A stretch of DNA of 64,000 nt from Nitrosopumilaceae archaeon (GTDB taxonomy: Archaea > Thermoproteota > Nitrososphaeria > Nitrososphaerales > Nitrosopumilaceae), in contig OZ242365.1 of NCBI GenBank assembly GCA_965208905.1, positions 768,001 through 832,000 on the forward strand, in the 5' to 3' direction. Position 1 is the first letter of the stretch. Each line of letters starts with the position of its first letter. Position numbers and translations under genes: made by a program. This document shows, piece by piece, positions 1-54,780 of the stretch. The notes below the pieces were generated by a model. The model was given only the letters and a program-made list of their open reading frames with translations. It was not told the origin of the DNA and did not search any database.

Positions 1-94
1 TAGAACTAGCGCGCTGACGCCACACAATCAATTCGCCATCCATGTATGGACTCGGGCATGGGCGTTATTGAGTATTCATAGATTATGTTGTCAA

Positions 95-1464
95 GGAGCT
101 GTCAAATCTTAGAGGGATATGACAGCCTGCCGTACGGCAGATGTTGGCGAGTTACCATCCAGAGGAGATTCCATGAGATGTTCCTTGTTGGTCAGGCTTT
201 GATGCCCGTCCTTTGGACAGCCTGTGCCGGCCATCACGTCACCAACGACACTGGGTATAGTGAGTGTCGCAAGATGTATCTTCCCTCTCAAGACCATTCC
301 GGCCTTGGCTTGCAGTGAATAAACGGCCTGCACGCGTTTACTCCACTGCACTGCATAAAAAGTGAATAATATGTTGAACGCGGCGTTGACGTCCGCGTGC
401 TGTACAACATCGCAGTCATGGCACCTGAATCGGCTGCCGTCGCGCCACGTGTTTGTTCTGCCGCATACACAGCACTGCTGCGATGTGTATTTCGGGTCAA
501 TCTCGGCATATTCGGTGTTGTGCTTGAGTGACTGCTGCGCCATGTGGGACCGCGCCTCACCGCACTTGGACTGCCGCACCAGACGGTTCTTGTTCTTCTG
601 GCCTGGGCCCTTGGTCGTCATGGTTTTGAGGTTCATGCCCTCCATGATTATTTTGTCGCATTGCGCGAACAGTTTTTTGGCAAACTTGCGCAGCTTGTCT
701 GTCTGCCGGTTTCCCATCTTGCGGTATATGCTTTGCAGCTGCGCGTGCAGTGTACACCACTTGTGGGAGTGAAGTTTGCAGTGAGACATCTTCTTTTGAA
801 TACGCGCGATGTTTCGTATAGTGTCCTTCTCGCGCAACATCAGCATCTCTATTCTGCCGTCCGATTTTGCCACCACAAGCGTGTGTTTGCCGCCCATGTC
901 AATTCCCGCGTGTACGCCGGTACATACACGGTCCGGAACGTGTTCGCGTATAGTTACATGCAGCTCAAACTGTCTTTCCCTGTCCGCATTATTCGTCACA
1001 TCCACAATTTTGTACGACTGTGATGTGTCGGGCAGGCGTCCTTTCTGGAGTTTGAAGGGCGCGCCACACTTTGGGAAATACACTGTATTACCCTTGGACT
1101 TTTTGCCAAGCGGCATATTACTATACAGTGGGTAAACCTTCTTGCCATACTTTACGTGAGTGCACCCCTCCATCTTGTGGCCTTCCTTGATGGCTCCGTG
1201 AACCCAAGCCTGTGGTATGCCCTGACATATGGTGGCTATTTTGTTGGTGTCAAACACCGACAGACCGGCCCGGCGCGCCTTTATCCCTGCATTGAGCCAC
1301 ACATGACTCTCCGAATACATGATGTCAAAGTATTCTGTCAGCCTGGCAGATGTCCTTAAACGGTATTGGACAGTCTTTATAATGTACTTTCCACCATTAT
1401 ACTTCATGTGTAGTTTATAACTTGGTGCTATTTAAGCGGTATCCCCCTAAGATTTGACAGTGCC
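95..1464 (-). mobile_element. Non-autonomous TIR/TSD-bounded element carrying only tnpB (IS6-like ends)
   Basis: TIRs GGAGCTGTCAAATCTTAGAGGGATA (95-119) and reverse complement of 1440-1464 GGCACTGTCAAATCTTAGGGGGATA match 22/25. An 8-bp direct repeat GTTGTCAA lies at 87-94 and 1465-1472. Confidence 0.88.
109..1407 (-). CDS. tnpB: RNA-guided endonuclease TnpB (IS200/IS605 OrfB family)
   Basis: RuvC-I GIDMGG, RuvC-II IIMEGMN, Zn finger TSQQCCVCG...FRCHDC, RuvC-III HADVNAAFNI. The D-E-D triad is intact and the stop codon lies inside the TIR. Confidence 0.93.
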   Translation of the reverse strand: MKYNGGKYIIKTVQYRLRTSARLTEYFDIMYSESHVWLNAGIKARRAGLSVFDTNKIATICQGIPQAWVHGAIKEGHKMEGCTHVKYGKKVYPLYSNMPLGKKSKGNTVYFPKCGAPFKLQKGRLPDTSQSYKIVDVTNNADRERQFELHVTIREHVPDRVCTGVHAGIDMGGKHTLVVAKSDGRIEMLMLREKDTIRNIARIQKKMSHCKLHSHKWCTLHAQLQSIYRKMGNRQTDKLRKFAKKLFAQCDKIIMEGMNLKTMTTKGPGQKNKNRLVRQSKCGEARSHMAQQSLKHNTEYAEIDPKYTSQQCCVCGRTNTWRDGSRFRCHDCDVVQHADVNAAFNILFTFYAVQWSKRVQAVYSLQAKAGMVLRGKIHLATLTIPSVVGDVMAGTGCPKDGHQSLTNKEHLMESPLDGNSPTSAVRQAVISL

Positions 1465-1638
1465 GTTGTCAAACTCTTTATCACTTCTATAAACTGCAGG
1501 AATGGTTCAGGTGGTGTATAACTCTAAACTTCTACCGTACAATCTCTGTAGTCGTATATACATGAGTCTGAATCGAATATTTGAAAGATGGTGGATCGGG
1601 TAGGGTATGTTGGATAGTGGAACAATGCAGCCAAACTT

Positions 1639-1992
1639 TTAACGACCCTTTTGCTCCAGTATGGCTCGGATTTTCCCCACCACCTTGTCAACAACCTGGC
1701 GTGTAGCGCGGCCTGCAAACTCGGCGTGTCTAGCACGCCAGTCCAAGCTCTTGATTTGATCCGCTAAAATCACTCCTCTGACACTGCCTGCATCTGGAAG
1801 ATCTACCTCAAACGGGTAGCCCTTGATCTTGGATGTAATGGGGCAAAATAGCGCCAACCCAACCTTCTCGTTATACGCGCTGGGGCTTATCACCACGGCG
1901 GGTCTTCTTCTTGCCTGCTCATGGCCAGCCTGCGGCATGAAATCAATCCAAACTATGTCGTCCCTTTCCGGCACGTAGCCTGCATCTACCAT
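1639..1992 (-). CDS. mazF: MazF/PemK-family endoribonuclease toxin
   Basis: GHEQARRRPAVVISPSAYN...PITSKIKGYPFEV...DQIKSLDWRAR motifs; ATG at 1992 overlaps the upstream stop. Confidence 0.93.
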   Translation of the reverse strand: MVDAGYVPERDDIVWIDFMPQAGHEQARRRPAVVISPSAYNEKVGLALFCPITSKIKGYPFEVDLPDAGSVRGVILADQIKSLDWRARHAEFAGRATRQVVDKVVGKIRAILEQKGR

Positions 1993-2153
1993 TCTTCTTT
2001 GCCCTGAGCCGAACCTGATTCGTGTTCGGGATGGCAATTGGTTTGGTCCACATGAGACAGCATGCTTGCCAAGTCGTACTTGTCCGTGTTAGTGTGATGC
2101 GCGCTATCAGACCTGCGTAACTCCGTACCCTTTCCAGCTGCATGCTTCATCAT
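1986..2153 (-). CDS. Short MazE-like antitoxin (55 aa, C-terminal toxin-binding segment only)
   Basis: Translated by hand: MMKHAAGKGTELRRSDSAHHTNTDKYDLASMLSHVDQTNCHPEHESGSAQGKEEW. The C-terminus fits the MazE pattern Y-x-L-xx-L...N-x-H-x-E...G-x-E-x-W and the stop overlaps the mazF ATG. Confidence 0.7.
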   Translation of the reverse strand: MMKHAAGKGTELRRSDSAHHTNTDKYDLASMLSHVDQTNCHPEHESGSAQGKEEW

Positions 2154-2396
2154 AACACTTGTACCGCATGCAGGTATATAATAATTACAAAGACTGGTGT
2201 TCTGGCGACCTGGTGAATACTGGGAGTCGTCAAGACATCATAAATCTACTATGGGTGCTCCTGCTGTGGCGTTAGAGTGGGAAACCTTGCCACGCTCGCC
2301 GCAGTTAGACAGTTGATACGGTTGGATAGTTTATCTCGTCAACCTCTGCGGCGATAGGTGCAGCTGGCGGGCACTCGCCTTGATGTCATATGTAAG

Positions 2397-2470
2397 TGGA
2401 CCGGGTGGGATTTGAACCCACGATCTGATCCATGCCAAGGACCCATCCTACCAGTCTAGACGACCGGCCC
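2397..2470 (-). tRNA. tRNA-Ala(GGC)
   Basis: GGGCCGG/CCGGTCC acceptor stem with G3:U70, anticodon arm GGTCC-TTGGCAT-GGATC, T-loop GTTCAAATC. Confidence 0.93.
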
Positions 2471-2515
2471 GCACTTGATATGAAGTATACTAACTGATAT
2501 TAACATATGTACAAT

Positions 2516-17754: not shown

Positions 17755-18459
17755 ATGAACCAAGACCCTGACACGACAAAAATGGACGAATCTGAGACTA
17801 GAATGATATCGTTACAGGAGGATGTTTTAAACTGTGTTAGATGTCCGCGGTTGGCAACGTATATTCGTAATGTTGCCAAGACTCGTACTCGCCGGTTCAT
17901 TAACGAGACGTACCATGGCAGGCCACTGCCAGGCTTTGGTGATGTGCATGCAAGACTGTTGATAGTGGGTTTGGCCCCGGCCGCCCATGGCGGAAATCGT
18001 ACAGGACGGATGTTTACAGGCGATTCGTCTGCAGACTGGCTGGCCCGCGTCATGTACAAATACAAACTGGCATCTACTCCTACTAGTATTGACAAGTCTG
18101 ATGGCCTGACACTGCGCAACGCATATGTGACCGCCGCGGCTCGATGCGCCCCCCCACAGAACAAGCCTACAGCAACAGAGTTACGTAACTGCCTGCCGTT
18201 TCTACAGCGTGAGTTGGATATACTGTATAATGTGCGGCTGATTTTATGTTTAGGCCAGATCGGATACAGAGCTACCTGCCAGGCTCTAAACGTCAAACCT
18301 GCTAAATTTGGTCATAATACACTACACAAGTATGATGGCACAAAGATCAGCATACTGACATCGTACCATCCATCTAGACAGAACACACAGACTGGCCGGC
18401 TCACTTGGGAGGCATGGGATAGCGTCTTTGCCCGCGCTTTGAGCATAATTGGTGTATAG
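17755..18459 (+). CDS. Uracil-DNA glycosylase family 5
   Basis: CVRCPRL, GLAPAAHGGNRTGRMFTGD, RCAPPQNKP, YHPSRQN. Confidence 0.92.
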   Translation: MNQDPDTTKMDESETRMISLQEDVLNCVRCPRLATYIRNVAKTRTRRFINETYHGRPLPGFGDVHARLLIVGLAPAAHGGNRTGRMFTGDSSADWLARVMYKYKLASTPTSIDKSDGLTLRNAYVTAAARCAPPQNKPTATELRNCLPFLQRELDILYNVRLILCLGQIGYRATCQALNVKPAKFGHNTLHKYDGTKISILTSYHPSRQNTQTGRLTWEAWDSVFARALSIIGV

Positions 18460-18472
18460 TATGCTTTATGCT

Positions 18473-20139
18473 TAGTACTCTGCAAAAAGATCCGATATTT
18501 TTCGGTGCCCGACGATAACAGAATTTCTTGCCAGAAGGGATTGGTTTGGGCCGCCCTTCTGCGTGGCAGTCGGCGCCCTACTCAATACGATGTCGGGTGC
18601 AGGGCCGTTGCGGACGGGTCTTGGCATGTTACAACTCAACTTGACATGAATGTAAAATTAGTTTGACATTGCCACGTTTAAACTAGAAGTGTGCCACCGG
18701 TAGTATGTACAAAACCAGTGTAGCACAAAAGGAAACCACAGAAACAGTATTTAACCCTACAGCACCCCGCAGAACCACAGCCAGGGGCAGCGAGCGCCTT
18801 CTGAAGGGTGATGACTTTATGCCCGACTATAAAATCGAGGTAATGGAGGTGTACGTACAGGGCCTCAGGGAGGGCAAGGAGCGAAGCGTTGGGACCGCGT
18901 GCATCAAGAGTAAGCAGAACAAGACCATGAGGACCATATCACAGGAGATGCTCCAGCCACCCGGTACGATTCGAGGCTGGCTGGCCAGGGGGCGGGATCG
19001 GGGCCTGCATGGTTTGGCAGACAAAAAGTCGCCGGGCCGGCCACCCATGATATGCGGCAGGGTTGATGAAACCATTCGGGAATGGCTGTCCAAATCCCCC
19101 GGCGACTTTGGGTTCGAGAGGAAGAGGTGGCAGCTGAACATGCTGCAAAAGAAGCTCAGCAATATGGGAATCAAGTGTAGCAACAGCACTGCAAGGAGGG
19201 CCATGCGCCGCGTCAGGTTCTCCTTCCGCAAGTCACGGCCGGTCCCATACAAGTCTGCATCCATGGAAGAGCAAAAAAGTTCAAGGAGGAAAAGTCAATC
19301 GTACTAAGAAATCTTGCCATACTCGGATATGTGATAATGGCACTTGATGAGGCAACATGCATGATAGGCGGTTGGAACGGCTACTCGTGGCTGCCCAAAG
19401 GCGGACGTGAGACCTCTCCTGTATCATGGTCAAAAAAATCAGTACGCCTGATAGGCGTGCTGGCAGACGGTTGGTTTCGTATTGCAATAATTGATGCCAC
19501 CAACTCTAAAACACTCAAGAACTTTCTGGATACCATAAAGGCAGGTATCGGCAAGGCGGCCATAATAATGGACAACGCATCATACCACAAATCAGAAAAG
19601 ACAGACGAATATCTGAACGGCTCTGATGGAATGTTTGAGTGCATCTTCCTTCCGGCGTACACGCCCCAGCTTAACCCAATCGAGGTGCTGTGGCGCGATC
19701 TCAAGCGCGCGCTGGCAGGCAGATACTTTGAATCTATAGACGACCTAAAGAAAGCCATCACAGATATAGTAAACAGTGGCGAGTTGCAGCCCCCCAAACT
19801 GTTCGGCTATATGCTACCAGATGGCATCCCACCCCCCAAACCCGTACCCTGCACCATACTGGACCTAACAACTCCGGAATCCAAGACCGAAACTGCCGCC
19901 GCCTGAGCGGGCCGTATAGTGCTGTCATGCCACGCACATGTTACCTGCACATCTTGCAGCCGGCCAGTATCGTGTTGATACTCCACTGCTCCCGACTTTA
20001 TACATACAGCCTGTCCTGTAATGGTTTGACTGGATAATGTGGTCCAGATAGCCCGATACCTGCCCGAATTCGGCCCTAATGGCACGATATTTTTGAATCA
20101 ATAAGATCGAAAAATATCGGATCTATCCACAAACGACTA
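18473..20139 (+). mobile_element. IS630-family insertion sequence
   Basis: TA at both ends; inverted repeats sharing TAGT...AGATCCGATATTTTTCG; two-ORF transposase. Confidence 0.85.
18705..19906 (+). CDS. IS630 transposase split into two ORFs by a -1 frameshift at an A6 run (19273-19278)
   Basis: HTH ORF (KSPGRPP) followed by DDE ORF (ALDEA, MDNASYH, PAYTPQLNPIE). The -1 frame reads QKKFKEEKSIVLRN into ORF2. Confidence 0.82.
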
Positions 20140-20392
20140 TGCTCATATGCAAACATATTATCAATATGCCATTACATCTAATGGTACCTAAAATCCATTA
20201 TACCTTACTCATCTTGACAGAGTTCTACAAGCGCTATGCGAACTATATTGCATTTTACTAAAAAAAGTCATAATCTGTTTGCCAGGCACATCATGCATTT
20301 TACCTTTAGGGTTTAGAGCGATTTTGGAGCATCTCTAAACAGACAAGATTTCCCGCAACAACGTAAATAACAATCCTGCCCTTATACACAGT

Positions 20393-20911
20393 ATGGATAC
20401 CTTTGATGGCATCTTGCTACTGTTGTACTGTAAGGGAGATGCCCACATAGGGAGAATAGCACTACAAAAGTTGGTATATGTCGCAGGCCACAAAATTCCC
20501 ACATTGGAGATCCCACCATACAAACTACAGTATTATGGGCCGTTCAGCGAGAAACTGGGTCGTATATTGGAGAGGTTGGTCTCAACATCATTTGTAACTG
20601 AGAATATGACACCTGGCGGTCACTATGAATCATATGATTACTCTTTGAATGATGACGGAGTCGATATATCTAATGATCTAAAGAGCAAGCCTGAATATAT
20701 GACAATACAGTCATTTATGGATGTCTGTCAGAAGACATGCAACTTTGATGTGGCCGCCCTCTCATATGCCTCAAAGATACTATACTTGATGGCTGACCGC
20801 TCTTATGATGATGCTGTAATTGATGCTAAAAAGTCTGATTGGGGGTTGTATAGGGGTAATATCAAGACGGGCATAAAGACACTACAGCGATTAAACTTGG
20901 TGAAGCATTAG
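20393..20911 (+). CDS. YwgA/DUF4065(Panacea)-like winged-helix protein
   Basis: GRIALQKLVY...YYGPFSEKL motif. Confidence 0.65.
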   Translation: MDTFDGILLLLYCKGDAHIGRIALQKLVYVAGHKIPTLEIPPYKLQYYGPFSEKLGRILERLVSTSFVTENMTPGGHYESYDYSLNDDGVDISNDLKSKPEYMTIQSFMDVCQKTCNFDVAALSYASKILYLMADRSYDDAVIDAKKSDWGLYRGNIKTGIKTLQRLNLVKH

Positions 20912-20912
20912 T

Positions 20913-22172
20913 TTGACCTACAAGTCTGTCCATGATCCACTGTATGGCTTTATAGATTTGAGCGAGCTTGAGATTCGTGTAATTGATTCGGCGGTATTTC
21001 GACGCCTACACCGAATAAAACAGTTGGCTCAGGCCAGTGCCGTATATCCGTCGGCCAGCCATGCTAGATTTGAACATTCATTGGGAGTATGTCATTTGGC
21101 AGGTCGCATGGCGAAACATCTCGAATTTGATGATAAAATGATACGAGCCGTTCGTTTAGCCGCATTATTACATGATGTGGGCCATGGCCCATTCTCTCAC
21201 ATCTTTGAGCCTGTACTGTCTAGTATCAACCATCAGGAGATAAGTCACGAGGAAATATCTCAGATGATGATAACAAAAGACCCCGAACTGTCTGGCATTC
21301 TAGGAGAGTTGGCGCCCCAAGTGGCCAGCATTCTTGCTCATAAACCTGTCCCTGGCTGGACACTTCAGAAGAGTATGCTGGCCGCTGATGTGATATCTGG
21401 CCCTTTGGATGTCGACCGCATGGACTATCTGCGCCGGGACTCGTACCATCTGGGAGTGGATTATGGTCACTTTGATCTTGATCAACTACTACATACGATA
21501 ACCACCACCAAAGATACCGGCGAGAGATGGGTGGCCGTAAACATCAAAGGGTGGGGAGCAATTGAACAGTACCGACTGGGCCGTTACCTAATGCATGCGC
21601 AGGTATACCAACATCATACCATAGTGATAGCCAACAGAATGTGTATGGACTCTATGCTGCGCGCCGTGGGTAGCGTGATAGATCCTGATGAGTTATTGGT
21701 CGGTTCACCAAACTTTTTGGAAAATTATACAAAACTAGATGACCAATCACTGAGTGACAGAATACTGTCATCGAATGGTGTAGCAGCAAAGATAATGGGC
21801 CGTCTACGGCGCCGCGACCTACTAAAACGTGTCTGTGAAATCTATCCTGGTAGTGACATACCAGACCCTAAAGCCCGCCTGAAGATGGCAAAGATGAATC
21901 ATACCACACAACAGAAGGTTGCCTCGGAGATTGCCCACACACTACATCTGGCCGAACATGATATAGTGGTGCATACCTCTCATATACCAGTACACCACAT
22001 CGAAGATCAAATTCTTGTAATACGCGATGGTGTACCCAGACACCTGAACGACTCCTCACCTATAATATCAAGTCATTCACCCATAGACAAATTTTACATA
22101 TTTGGTCCCGACAACAATAGAGTTCGAGATACAGTACGTGACTACATGTGTAGTGAATTTGGCATATTATGA
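20913..22172 (+). CDS. HD-domain phosphohydrolase (SAMHD1/YwfO-like dNTPase)
   Basis: DPLYGFI, FRRLHRIKQL, HARFEHSLG, LHDVGHGPFSH, DVDRMDYLRRD. Confidence 0.9.
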   Translation: MTYKSVHDPLYGFIDLSELEIRVIDSAVFRRLHRIKQLAQASAVYPSASHARFEHSLGVCHLAGRMAKHLEFDDKMIRAVRLAALLHDVGHGPFSHIFEPVLSSINHQEISHEEISQMMITKDPELSGILGELAPQVASILAHKPVPGWTLQKSMLAADVISGPLDVDRMDYLRRDSYHLGVDYGHFDLDQLLHTITTTKDTGERWVAVNIKGWGAIEQYRLGRYLMHAQVYQHHTIVIANRMCMDSMLRAVGSVIDPDELLVGSPNFLENYTKLDDQSLSDRILSSNGVAAKIMGRLRRRDLLKRVCEIYPGSDIPDPKARLKMAKMNHTTQQKVASEIAHTLHLAEHDIVVHTSHIPVHHIEDQILVIRDGVPRHLNDSSPIISSHSPIDKFYIFGPDNNRVRDTVRDYMCSEFGIL

Positions 22173-23117
22173 TATAGGTTTGTTGGATGTCAGTTCCGCG
22201 AGCATAGCAGACAACTGTATCTCAGAGTTGGCACCAGATAATATACGATAGTCATATTCGGCTATTATGCGCACCACCCAAGCGGGATCTATGCGCTCCA
22301 TCTTGAATGCTGCGGCGGTTATATACTTTAAAAAGTCTGACTCGGACATTCCGTACACTTTTATCAGCTCGACAGTCTTTTGCCGTGCCTCTGTAAACTT
22401 GCCGTCTATGGCCATCTGTAGTATACGATCAACGTCGGTAACCTTTGCTAGTCCGGCCATGGCCCGTACACTATCTGCAGTCACACTAGAATCAGTCACA
22501 GACGCCTGCATTAGATTTATGGAGTGTCTCATGTCTCCACCAGAGTAGTCGTATATCATATCTAGGGCATTATCATCTATGGATGCGCCCTCGGATTTGG
22601 CTATCTGTCGTAGCTTACCTGTCATATCTTCTTTGGATATGGATGTAAATCTAAAGTTGGCGCATCTAGACTGTATGGGTTCTATTATCTTTGATACATT
22701 ATTGGCTATTATGATGAATCTACAATACTCGGCGGCATCCTCAATTATGCGGCGCAAGGCAGTCTGCGCACCTGATGTCATCTCGTCGGCTTCATCTAGT
22801 ATTATTATCTTAAAGGGTATGTCTCCCATCCCTGCATATCTGGAGAATCGTTTTACCTTTTCCCGTACCATATCTATGCCCCTCTCATCTGAAGCATTCA
22901 ACTCTAGCGTGTAGTTGGAACGGTTATCCCCTAGTATGTGTCGCGCTATACACAGGGCAGTTGTAGTCTTGCCAACACCTGCAGAACCCGAGAAGAGTAG
23001 ATGCGGCATCTGTGATACATTCTCTAAAAGACTCTGTATACTGTTTATGGTACCCTTCTGCCCTACAACATCTGAGAGCTCTGTAGGTCGATATTTTTTA
23101 ACCCACATGTTATCCAT
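22167..23117 (-). CDS. rfcS: Replication factor C small subunit
   Basis: WVKKYRP, GSAGVGKTT, ELNASDERG, LDEAD, IQSRC. Confidence 0.95.
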   Translation of the reverse strand: MDNMWVKKYRPTELSDVVGQKGTINSIQSLLENVSQMPHLLFSGSAGVGKTTTALCIARHILGDNRSNYTLELNASDERGIDMVREKVKRFSRYAGMGDIPFKIIILDEADEMTSGAQTALRRIIEDAAEYCRFIIIANNVSKIIEPIQSRCANFRFTSISKEDMTGKLRQIAKSEGASIDDNALDMIYDYSGGDMRHSINLMQASVTDSSVTADSVRAMAGLAKVTDVDRILQMAIDGKFTEARQKTVELIKVYGMSESDFLKYITAAAFKMERIDPAWVVRIIAEYDYRILSGANSEIQLSAMLAELTSNKPIS

Positions 23118-37832: not shown

Positions 37833-39202
37833 TGTGTTGCATGTTGCGTTACATATTATGAAGCTTGGCTCCATCGGTTCCTACTGCAAGCACGGGGGTT
37901 CCCGCACCTACAATTACACATCATGCCAGAGGACGACAATGCATGAAGCATCTCGTTCCCCGGTCCGTGCTTGACGCTTCCCAGGGGAGCTAACGCAAGA
38001 ACCCTCCACGTCCAGACACCTCTTGTACAATGGGTGCTGCCGGTGTAGTCCGGCAAATTTCGTAACTTTAGTTGGTCATGTATGGCCCCCCGGCCAAGTT
38101 TCTTCAGCCCCATATCTTCTATGTTTGAGCCCGCATTGCAGTCGGCATGATATGTGTAGCCACACTTCCTGCACAAGAACTTTCTGCCATCCCGGTTGTC
38201 CTCATGCATATAGCCGCACGAGCAGCACCGCTGACTTGTATATGCTGCCGCAACCCAAACTATCTCGCCAGCCAACTTGTACTCCAATAGAGCAGCGAGC
38301 AGCCTCCAACACTGCTCCAGAATGGCCTTGTTCAGCCCAGACTTCTGCGCAACGTTTTTGCCGGGTTCTTCTTCCGTGCCTTTGGCGGACTGTACCATGT
38401 TTTGTATGGGAAGTTTCTCAAGGGCTGCATGTGTGGCGCTGTTAGATATAATGCGTGATATCTTATGCGTGATGGTCTTTCGCATGTTTGCCACCTTGCG
38501 TTTGTTCTTGGCGGCACGTTTGGCGGCTTTCGCCCACCGTCGGGAGCCGGGCTTGCGATTCGTATGCTCCGGCTTCTGCCTGTATGATGCTATCTTTTGC
38601 GCCTTTGAGGCCGTCTTCTCGGCGTTGTTCATGCGGCGTGCCACCTTTTCAGGTATAATTATTACCCAGTCAGGTGTGGTCACATTACCGACATTCCGGT
38701 CTATGCCAATAATAGTCGGTTCCGTCACAACTGGCTCCTCATCAGGTATATTACAAGATATGGTAATTCTCCACCCGCCATCCGGTAGTTGAAACCGTTG
38801 TGCAGTCTTGTATCGGTAATTCAAGACGGGAAACTCCCGCGACAATTTAATCTCGCCCATCTTGGCTATCCTGATTGTACGTGTATCAGTGAAGTGCGCC
38901 TGACCAGTAGTGTTATCATGCGTTATCGTCAACGGGATGGAGATATGACTTCCATGTTTCTTAAAGTGCGGCTCACCAAACTCTACCTTAGGTTCGAGGC
39001 CAGCAGCCTTCAACCTCTCTGTCTCCACATATTGGTCATAATGCCTGCCCAGATCATATAATATTTGGCGCGTCACCCCGGATATGGACTGACTCATCCA
39101 ACGCGGACCCGAACGGTTGCGCAAGTCCGTATATCAGGCGTTTATTCTACCGCGCGTAGTGTTGACCCTCCCAACTCGACGGTACTCTTCCTTGAAGATT
39201 TC

Positions 39203-40246
39203 TGTATTATGTCGAAATTATTTCGCCTAGTCATCGGTGTCCCTCTCCATCCATTCTAAGTCACTCTTCCTGACATCATCTGGTACTTTTTTGTTGTGAA
39301 ATGCCTGTAGCGGGGTCTCGCCATTGTTTATGTCTAAAGACCAGTGCAGTCGCACCTCGTTGTAGTACGCGACAAACTCCGCTAGGCTGCCAAAATGACA
39401 TAGTTCTTCTTCCAAGGTGCGGTGGAACCGTTCAAGCTTGCCGTTTGTTTGTGGGTGGTAGGGGCGGGTGTTGATCAACTCAATACCCCGGTCAAGCAGC
39501 TCTGCCTCAAATATAGTGGGGGTCCATGATTTTGCAGGAATCTTTCTTCTCACACCCACAAAGCACGATCCGTTGTCGGAGAGTATGGTGGCCGGGGTTC
39601 CAAACTCAACAATGCTATTTTGCAGGACTGTTACCGCGTTCTCGGATGTGGCCCCCTTGAATATCATGGCTCCAACCACACATCTTGACGCATCATCAAG
39701 ATATGTGATTAATTGGTAGCCTTGAAAACGTGGATCTTTCATCGCATGCCAGTCCGTATGCCACATCGCATTGGAGTATCTGCGCTCATAGCGTATCCAT
39801 TTACGCCTGCGCGATTTTGCTGCAGATAGAGTGACCATATTGTTTTCTTTCATGATTGTGTATACCGTTTTTTCACTTATTTGTATGCCCTTGTGATTTA
39901 AGTACTTGGTGATCCTTGTGACGCCTGCTGGCATTATACGATGTGCTGCTAGTACGACGTTGGTTTGCTCCTCGGTGGGAGGAATCTTGGGTCTGCCTGG
40001 CATTTGTAGTGTGGGAATCTTGCCCGTTGCACGATACATTGCCCAGAGTTGTTGTACGCGTCTCTGGCTAATCTTCATCTCTGTAGCAATGTGTGATGTA
40101 CTACTACCTTTCCTGCATTGTCGAATGATATAATCTATCTGCTTCTGTGTCAGATTGACTCTCATGGGTTTGCGTGATCTATATAGACTAAAATATTCTT
40201 TGGTTGGCAGTCTAAAGTTAGGGCGAACTAATTTCCGCACAATAGA
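39203..40246 (-). mobile_element. IS481-family insertion sequence (1044 bp) with 15-bp TSD
   Basis: TIRs TGTATTATGTCGAAATTATTTCG / TCTATTGTGCGGAAATTAGTTCG; TTCCTTGAAGATTTC duplicated at 39188-39202 and 40247-40261. Confidence 0.92.
39227..40165 (-). CDS. IS481-family transposase (rve integrase core)
   Basis: WHTDW, LDDASR, SDNGSCF, PQTNGKLERFHRT. Confidence 0.9.
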   Translation of the reverse strand: MRVNLTQKQIDYIIRQCRKGSSTSHIATEMKISQRRVQQLWAMYRATGKIPTLQMPGRPKIPPTEEQTNVVLAAHRIMPAGVTRITKYLNHKGIQISEKTVYTIMKENNMVTLSAAKSRRRKWIRYERRYSNAMWHTDWHAMKDPRFQGYQLITYLDDASRCVVGAMIFKGATSENAVTVLQNSIVEFGTPATILSDNGSCFVGVRRKIPAKSWTPTIFEAELLDRGIELINTRPYHPQTNGKLERFHRTLEEELCHFGSLAEFVAYYNEVRLHWSLDINNGETPLQAFHNKKVPDDVRKSDLEWMERDTDD

Positions 40247-40560
40247 TTCCTTGAAGATTTCCAATAGTTTGTTATACCCATACCTATCCAAGCCGGCCTG
40301 TCCAGCCAACATCCCCTCCTTGAACCCCTTACGGAATCTAACTCTAAATGTATATGTGCGTAACGCCATTAATGTATAGTACGGTCCACACACTTAAAAA
40401 GATAATTGATTATACAGAACCCGACTTTGCGGGAGGAACCAGTTCACGTAATAATAGCGAGGTTAGTATACGTAGGAATACAGTCAGACAAGATTATGGA
40501 CAGTTTGCCTGATGAATTCGAAGGCATGTCGCCAAAACATCACACCTCAAGTCTGGACTC

Positions 40561-54300: not shown

Positions 54301-54780
54301 CTGTTAAATCTCTTAAAATATTATAAAATTACAGTCTATGGGCCTGATTGACCAGAAAGGTACCTCACAGCAATGCTGCATGTGCGACAGCACAAACACA
54401 TGGCTCCACAGCAACAATTCAGGCGCCACAATTGTGGCGTTTTAATGCACGTAGGTGTCAACGTGGCATTCAACATATTATTCATTTTTTATGCAGTGCA
54501 GTGGGGTAGGCGTGTGCAAGCTGTCTATGCACTACAAAACAAGATTGGAATGGTCTTGAGAGGAAAGATACATCTTGGCACTTGCACGCTTCCTCCCAGT
54601 GTTAATGACATCATGGTCGGCACAGGCTGTCCAAAGGTTGGGTGTCAAAACCCGACCAACAAAAGACATCTCAATGGAGCTCCTCTGAATGGCGGCTCAT
54701 CGCCAACATCTGTGGAAACACAGGCTGTTTATCCCTCGGATTTAACACTCAGTTTCATCCCTCAGTAACTTAACAGTTCC
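54301..54780 (+). mobile_element. Internally deleted derivative of the TIR-tnpB element (3' tnpB remnant plus right TIR)
   Basis: Homologous to the 3' part of tnpB 109-1407 (FNILF-FYAVQW...GMVLRGKIHL...GTGCPK). Right end reverse complement is GGAACTGTTAAGTTACTGAGGGATG; left remnant CTGTTAAATC at 54301. Confidence 0.82.

Follow-up and report, generated by a model that had tools for sequence, protein, structure and literature searches.

A tnpB gene between inverted repeats and an 8-bp target duplication in a Nitrosopumilaceae archaeon, probably carried as cargo and mobilized in trans by an IS6-like enzyme

The window analyzed here is a stretch of 64,000 nucleotides from the genome of a Nitrosopumilaceae archaeon (contig OZ242365.1 of assembly GCA_965208905.1, positions 768,001 to 832,000), and close to its start lies a 1,370-bp unit, window 95-1464, whose sole content is an intact tnpB gene, as read directly from the sequence and the list of open reading frames (ORFs). 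TnpB is the ancestor of Cas12. The host genome is a single contig of 2,214,775 bp with 45.6% G+C and a completeness of 99.57%. Coordinates in the window are marked as such or belong to the features listed here; all others are those of the host genome. The features of the unit and its borders are as follows.

87-94, no strand: left target-site duplication, 8 bp, GTTGTCAA, read directly and identical to 1465-1472
95-119, no strand: 25-bp terminal inverted repeat at the tnpB 3' (guide-RNA) end, GGAGCTGTCAAATCTTAGAGGGATA, read directly and recovered by repeat search
98-126, minus strand: predicted terminal hairpin GCUGUCA...UGACAGC, from repeat search and RNAfold
109-1407, minus strand: tnpB, 432 amino acids, intact, the only long ORF in the element
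120-308, minus strand: predicted guide-RNA (omegaRNA)-like structured region overlapping the tnpB 3' end, from conservation and RNAalifold
1408-1439, minus strand: short stretch ahead of the gene that includes a TATA-like box, CTTAAATA (window 1429-1436, minus strand), read directly
1440-1464, no strand: 25-bp terminal inverted repeat at the tnpB 5' (promoter) end, the reverse complement of GGCACTGTCAAATCTTAGGGGGATA, read directly and recovered by repeat search
1465-1472, no strand: right target-site duplication, 8 bp, GTTGTCAA, read directly

The two ends of the element agree at 22 of 25 positions by direct reading, and a repeat search recovers a core of 21-nt arms (99-119 and 1440-1460) with 95% identity. 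The 25-bp repeat is not itself palindromic. At the 3' end of the gene, the tnpB stop codon (109-111) falls within the inverted repeat, and the TATA-like box, a motif kept in all subfamilies, lies ≈25 nt ahead of the tnpB ATG; we take it to be a promoter element from what is generally known of archaeal promoters. An earlier interpretation made from the letters of this DNA, hereafter the sequence-only reading, had described a tnpB-only unit of this length with 25-bp terminal inverted repeats, a perfect 8-bp duplication, and the tnpB stop inside the repeat, and each of these features is seen directly.

The 432-residue protein matches the NCBIfam family guided_TnpB (NF040570, 113.6 bits against a cut-off of 100) and the Pfam families OrfB_IS605 (PF01385, 39.1 bits against 30.5) and Cas12f1-like_TNB (PF07282, 52.5 bits against 26.3). 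It aligns to ISDra2-type TnpB chains, and this alignment places D170 (GIDMG), E256 (IIMEGMN), and D339 (HADVNAA) at the catalytic motifs. When the window protein is aligned with 11 relatives of 66-83% identity, these three residues are unchanged in 12 of 12 sequences, as are the zinc-finger cysteines C312, C315, C329, and C332 (CxxC...CxxC). With the triad and the zinc-finger cysteines kept, the window TnpB is predicted to be catalytically intact, as the sequence-only reading had claimed, and this holds for the window copy alone among the three copies of its subfamily.

The other two are full copies that share the ends of this subfamily and are 94-95% identical to the window copy. Both flanks of the one at 1379633-1381002 read CGTGATCA (8/8 positions), whereas the flanks of the other, at 1405835-1407202, form an imperfect pair (GTCTTGCA versus CTTGTACA). 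Perfect 8-bp duplications of different sequence thus border two of the three subfamily copies. Because the same ends recur at two other genome sites with other flanks, the match between ends and duplications is not due to chance, and we regard the inverted ends and the 8-bp duplication of window 95-1464 as real and confirmed. The search for copies with different duplications had been suggested by the sequence-only reading, and it returned one different perfect duplication and one imperfect one. A solo truncated end of this subfamily also lies at 424610-424743. Within the window, positions 54346-54779 hold a remnant of this tnpB family that has lost its 5' part; it comprises the C-terminal third and the RNA region and ends in two sub-repeats (GGGAACTGTTAAGTTACTGAGGGATGA...GTGTTAAATCCGAGGGATAA) in an architecture resembling that of IS6-like ends.

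The element belongs to a genome that is rich in repeats (224 repeated regions) and in TnpB. The TnpB TNB domain has 75 matches in the host genome and 8-51 in eight of nine other congeners, and Pfam assignments of the ORFs in repeats yield seven TnpB families together with rve, IS630, IS110, IS1595, IS5, and IS240-type (IS6-like) transposases. We scanned tnpB loci for inverted ends (at most 5 mismatches in 16 nt between ends) with an 8-bp duplication (at most 1 mismatch) and found both at 32 of the 62 full-length tnpB genes of the host genome, spread over five of the seven families. The same scan finds them at 13/18 tnpB loci sampled in three congeners; the loci that it misses may have degraded ends or ends beyond the scan range. 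Such structures were also seen at 2/6 loci scanned in two more congeners. A wider scan of genome contigs by two peptide patterns returned only 6 loci in two records and has little bearing on distribution. A copy of a 490-residue TnpB family occupies window 37876-40440, between GGTTCC-type ends that lie 2,565 bp apart and have no matching duplication. It is ≈1 kb longer than its relatives and may contain a nested insertion.

Elements that consist of tnpB alone are usually of the IS200/IS605 kind as described in PMC3119063 and PMC13565253, and the unit could on these grounds be taken for an ordinary single-stranded DNA element of the IS1341 group, with the repeat as a by-product of subterminal hairpins and the 8-bp match as a chance event or a fixed motif. 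A hairpin is indeed present at the guide-RNA end. However, the 25-bp repeat is no palindrome, the inner arm of the hairpin is missing at the other end, and the duplications vary between copies and occur at about half of the tnpB genes (the 32/62 above). The Y1_Tnp profile (PF01797) has 0 matches in the host genome, and none of 41 genomes from the order has a match over its cut-off; the same profile is detected in 6/14 reference genomes run as a control. The resolvase profile (PF00239), searched in the host genome, has 0 matches there and is detected in 12/14 reference genomes. The IS200/IS605 explanation is already contradicted by these observations, and we consider it extremely improbable.

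What the host genome does contain is a set of ≈13 IS6-like DDE transposase genes, identified by tblastn. Their products are 355-461 residues long, carry a zinc ribbon, and score 55-56 bits against PF13610 (cut-off 27). Automatic end-finding was unsuccessful around several of these genes, and only some of the elements are delimited; those that are measure 3.4-3.9 kb, are flanked by 8-bp duplications, and have ends of 25-50 bp with sub-repeats. The elements at 18695-22054 and 157876-161563 are flanked by GAATTTTT and GTCAATAC, respectively. Two direct copies, at 1337692-1341644 and 1851328-1854929, have exchanged their 8-bp flanks, with GTCCGTTG...AAAATAAC at one and AAAATAAC...GTCCGTTG at the other. 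Such an exchange would be left by a cointegrate or by recombination between copies, and we take it as a hint of movement through cointegrates. In the copy at 1337692-1341644, moreover, the right end is present a second time, 351 bp further in. The IS6-like elements scanned for cargo (regions 1851028-1855229, 18395-22354, and 156400-161700) each carry an N6/N4 DNA methylase, and the companions of the methylase in the three are a NotI-like nuclease, an unassigned ORF, and an HNH-like region fused to the methylase. In addition, there are eight miniature elements of 171 bp whose ends are those of one IS6-like type, with an identity to that type of at least 97.9% and positions that include 347829-347999, 470002-470172, 470822-470992, 474681-474851, and 489410-489580. 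Four of them had their flanks read, of which two show perfect 8-bp duplications (CCGGTAAA and TTTTGGAT) and two are unmatched; the 8-mer GGAGATAT beside the miniature element at 474681 reappears beside a fifth copy, at 489410.

The ends of these IS6-like elements start GG(A/T)(A/T)CTG, and the genome contains IS6-like transposons with 8-bp duplications whose ends start GG(A/T)(A/T)CTGTCAA. IS26 ends, according to the sequence-only reading, begin GGCACTGT. We compared the first 24 nt of tnpB-family ends with 13 ends of IS6-like, IS1595, IS630, and IS5 elements, covering nine correctly registered tnpB-family ends and leaving out the row for the remnant copy in the window. The best match is an IS6-like end in all nine cases. 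For the end of the window element, the closest IS6-like end agrees at 17 of 24 positions and at 11 of the first 12, scores that are reached by 4 and 2, respectively, of 20,000 random genomic 24-mers. Other tnpB subfamilies match other IS6-like ends at 17-19 of 24 positions, and one end of the sister copy at 740547-741869 agrees at all 24 positions with those of the element found at 1337692-1341644 and 1851328-1854929. No IS6-like transposase gene of the host genome lies between the same pair of ends as a tnpB, which counts in favor of tnpB as cargo moved in trans. The two adjoin only at 2095793, where an IS6-like insertion has truncated a tnpB copy, and the second end of that IS6-like copy is undetectable.

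A second resident family has to be weighed as the mover. The IS1595-family element at 1043578-1046414 (2,837 bp) has the 8-bp duplication AAAATTAT and GGGAATTATATAC ends, and encodes a transposase of 173 bits against a cut-off of 75 as well as a methylase-HNH fusion. Its ends also bound two other TnpB families in the host genome, and such ends are common to these families and to congeneric copies of the same TnpB clade as the window protein; an IS1595-family transposase of the host genome, rather than an IS6-like enzyme, could accordingly be thought to move the window element. The ends of its subfamily nevertheless match IS6-like ends best (17/24 and 11/12), and an IS1595 end is the best match for none of the nine ends compared. 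We therefore judge an IS1595 mover for this subfamily to be improbable. As a separate observation, GGGAATTATATAC ends bound most TnpB elements sampled in three congeners.

The ends also differ among the wider relatives of the element. Nine further near-full or partial copies, with 72-82% DNA identity, have only interior positions 26-1346 in common with the window element, and their ends differ from those of the window element and are often longer. Again, 8-bp duplications flank these sister copies wherever both ends were found, as with CTCTGAAC at 2209813-2211265. In a congeneric genome, members of the same TnpB clade (67-75% identity) lie between GGGAATTAT-type repeats with 8-bp duplications, and the GGGAATTAT-type repeat is found in the host genome as the ends of the IS1595 element at 1043578-1046414. 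The tnpB/omegaRNA unit thus appears to behave as a cassette whose relatives sit between several unrelated pairs of ends, each resembling that of a different resident DDE transposon. Judged from these sequence comparisons, the window element is one instance of a lineage-wide habit, the carriage of TnpB cassettes by IS6-like and IS1595 ends.

A putative RNA part of the cassette stands out by its conservation. The three subfamily copies are nearly invariant over the final ≈215 nt ahead of the element end, whereas the coding sequence upstream varies, and the region is also conserved across ten representatives of the wider family, for which RNAalifold predicts 51 pairs, with compensatory changes at 10. 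Among them is the last scaffold hairpin, whose sequence is CUGCCGUACGGCAG, CUGUGUUAACACAG, or CUGUUGUACAACAG depending on the copy. The hairpin at alignment columns 126-150 can form two alternative helices, CGACACU/AGUGUCG and GCACUUG/CAAGUGC, with arms one column apart. A search of window 1-1600 against Rfam gave no match at E ≤ 1. The boundary of the conserved scaffold coincides exactly with the start of the subfamily-specific ends. In the window element, the predicted terminal hairpin GCUGUCA...UGACAGC joins the end of the scaffold to the outer inverted repeat and leaves only UCC (3 nt) before the duplication, and direct reading shows that its inner arm is missing from the other end of the element. 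RNAfold predicts such a terminal hairpin for all seven delimited family members, in each case with the outer repeat as one arm and 3-4 nt between hairpin and duplication, and comparable terminal hairpins, with 6-15 nt left over, occur in the other four TnpB families scanned. The putative omegaRNA probably extends across the inverted repeat as far as position 95.

Where the guide begins can be read in two ways, either as the repeat itself or as the flank, with the RNA running through the repeat. Sister families of the host genome carry family-specific motifs that adjoin the promoter-side duplication on its 5' side and have no mirror at the 3' flank. In the 451-residue TnpB family, G stands at -1 in 12/12 copies, with A at -4 in 9/12 and T at -3 likewise in 9/12; the 539-residue family has TA at -2/-1 in 6/6, with C as the first duplicated base in 5/6; and the 490-residue family has TT at -3/-2 in 4/4. 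A flank motif specific to one orientation is what a target-adjacent motif (TAM) would be expected to leave. Because the terminal hairpins use the outer repeat and the sister families carry one-sided flank motifs, we favor the flank as guide, and the guide probably starts at the duplication. The 8-bp duplication cannot itself be the TAM, since its sequence is not fixed. A TTGAY-type TAM inside the subfamily duplications was also considered and dropped, as the three copies have no common register for it.

The same observations bear on an alternative history, in which the cassette landed in a pre-existing miniature IS6-like element by an old IS605-type insertion or by RNA-guided homing, such that the repeat is the guide and TnpB targets transposon ends. 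It would account for a scaffold that ends exactly where the subfamily-specific ends start and for a cassette found with at least five unrelated end types, including the IS1595 type in a congener, and the 171-bp elements show that miniature elements with IS6-like ends exist in this genome. Yet no empty shell with the ends of this subfamily was found, since a pattern of 14 specified bases hit nothing beyond one truncated end and the three copies; the inner hairpin arm, present at the guide-RNA end alone, suggests that the repeat is built into the RNA; and the TAM-like motifs of the sister families adjoin the duplication, not the repeat. We consider such an origin unlikely, although less so than an IS1595 mover.

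On balance, we think it likely that window 95-1464 represents a DDE-type transposon that is non-autonomous, carries tnpB as its cargo, and is moved in trans, most probably by an IS6-like enzyme. A DDE transposase encoded elsewhere in the genome would recognize the 25-bp inverted ends, most likely one of the IS6-like transposases that make 8-bp target duplications, and movement would be unlike that of IS200/IS605 or IS607. The tnpB gene would bring its own short promoter region and a 3' omegaRNA region, transcribed through the inverted repeat and ending in a hairpin built partly from that repeat. The guide would then be drawn from the target duplication and the flank beyond, here TTGACAACATAATC..., and TnpB would cut the unoccupied allele of the same site, making it more likely that the element is retained or copied.

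Several observations weigh against this interpretation. No transposase-bearing element with ends identical to those of the subfamily was found in the host genome, where the closest match is the 17/24 given above; the search that the sequence-only reading had proposed, for an IS6 transposase with these same terminal repeats, thus came back empty. The best NCBIfam family of the resident transposases is IS6 (NF033587), but at 86-103 bits they remain below its cut-off of 125. As they also lie in elements with restriction-modification cargo, we call them IS6-like and at most candidate members of IS6 itself. The IS1595 transposases of the host genome likewise make 8-bp duplications and share ends with other TnpB families, so the length of the duplication does not single out IS6. 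Nor is there a sign of recent movement, given that the three subfamily copies differ by 5-6%, that each of the two copies outside the window has one in-frame stop, which leaves the window copy as the only intact one, and that junctions matching all three copies occur in contigs of a second organism label. Empty sites, also proposed as a check, were sought by comparing contigs from four DNA runs with window 1-2500. Contigs of both organism labels run from the left flank into the element, and loose ends match the flanks of two of the other copies; no contig from the four runs skips the element, and no empty allele was seen. For the guide, the window element's own family shows only a weak flank motif, with G at -2 in 6/7 copies and either T or G at -1 in 7/7, and the terminal hairpin may alternatively have a role for the transposase or stem from the origin of the ends.

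A further difficulty concerns what TnpB would offer its vehicle. The known role of TnpB is to restore excised IS605 and IS607 copies, which needs scarless excision beside a fixed TAM, and homing by TnpB pays off for elements that excise. Since IS6 movement is thought to be replicative (PMC7986276), the benefit of TnpB to a possibly replicative IS6-like vehicle is unclear. The claim of IS6-type mobilization in trans made by the sequence-only reading accordingly stands in part: a real DDE-style element, the lack of any TnpA, and IS6-like transposons with similar ends speak for it, and transposases that stay below the IS6 cut-off speak against it.

More tentatively, and with rather less than even confidence, we suggest that the tnpB/omegaRNA unit of this lineage may be a free-standing selfish cassette that switches repeatedly between several IS6-like and IS1595 vehicles by capturing ends, with its guide at the duplication and a family-specific TAM-like motif upstream marking the insertions that TnpB can defend, or copy, through cleavage of the empty allele. 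If this is true, the arrangement would be a prokaryotic counterpart of Fanzor capture, and RNA-guided homing would extend to transposons that make duplications and are perhaps replicative.

Adjoining the element, window 1591-2395 forms an 805-bp segment that one contig in each of two runs, under the second organism label, skips. This presence/absence segment holds a PemK/MazF-type toxin gene (window 1639-2037, minus strand, 95 bits in Pfam).

Transposons of this general kind have been published. Altae-Tran et al. (2023, PNAS; PMC10691335) describe six TnpB branches, DDE-1 to DDE-6, linked to DDE transposases and all with inverted terminal repeats, as well as solo TnpBs within nearly identical ends of transposase-bearing elements, which they propose to be moved in trans. 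Their main text names only IS630 as a DDE partner, and its supplements could name others; the DDE vehicles listed in a 2026 review (PMC13565253) are ISL2, IS630, and IS1031. The novelty that the sequence-only reading attached to a DDE-mobilized TnpB was thus overstated. An IS6-like vehicle for TnpB is not described in the literature found at title and abstract level by a search for TnpB with IS6, nor is an IS1595 vehicle by the corresponding search for TnpB with IS1595. What is new lies in the details, namely which vehicles are used, that their ends are swapped, and that no TnpA is present.

In this lineage TnpB is met in another setting, with dozens of TnpB genes per genome on DDE ends that make 8-bp duplications. 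It makes testable what use TnpB is to a transposon that leaves a duplication and perhaps does not excise, how a guide is defined when an inverted repeat stands between scaffold and flank, and how cassettes change vehicles, a step thought to precede the eukaryotic Fanzors. For annotation, it implies that such elements would be mislabeled as IS200/IS605.

Compared with the DDE branches described by Altae-Tran et al. (2023), the window element similarly has tnpB within inverted repeats and its 3' end less than 250 bp from the transposon end, here with the stop codon (109-111) inside the repeat. Unlike those branches as presented there, the vehicles are IS6-like, with IS1595 for sister families, no transposase was seen within the ends of tnpB itself, and one cassette occurs with several swapped end types. 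In the published cases the ends are nearly identical to those of a transposase-bearing element; here the agreement is 17/24 for the subfamily of the window element, 17-19/24 for others, and 24/24 for one sister copy. With the IS1341 group of IS200/IS605, the element shares a single tnpB, a structured 3' RNA region, and multiple copies. It differs in having inverted ends and a duplication and in that no Y1 transposase was found, whereas IS200/IS605 elements lack both features and depend on Y1 (PMC3119063, PMC13565253), and the haloarchaeal TnpB-only elements described in PMC3119063 are likewise without inverted ends or duplications. IS607 differs by its serine recombinase TnpA, for which the host genome has 0 PF00239 matches.

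The account of IS6 by Varani et al. (2021; PMC7986276) gives 8-bp repeats, lengths of 700-890 bp (≈800 bp), perfect ends of 14 bp, and a single transposase of 213-254 residues, with only one member known to have a passenger gene and with miniature non-autonomous derivatives. The resident elements agree with it in their 8-bp duplications, in IS6 as the best-matching transposase profile, and in their miniature derivatives, and they depart from it in their size (3.4-3.9 kb), their 25-50-bp ends, their transposases of 355-461 residues, and their restriction-modification cargo. Finally, the closest parallel outside prokaryotes is Fanzor1 in eukaryotic DDE transposons, where a TnpB-type nuclease is likewise a passenger between the inverted repeats of duplication-making transposons (PMC13565253). 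In Fanzor1, according to the same review, the guide lies beyond the element end and the duplication is part of the recognized site, unlike the duplications here, which are not fixed in sequence. The system in the window differs further in being prokaryotic and in having the canonical RuvC-II glutamate.

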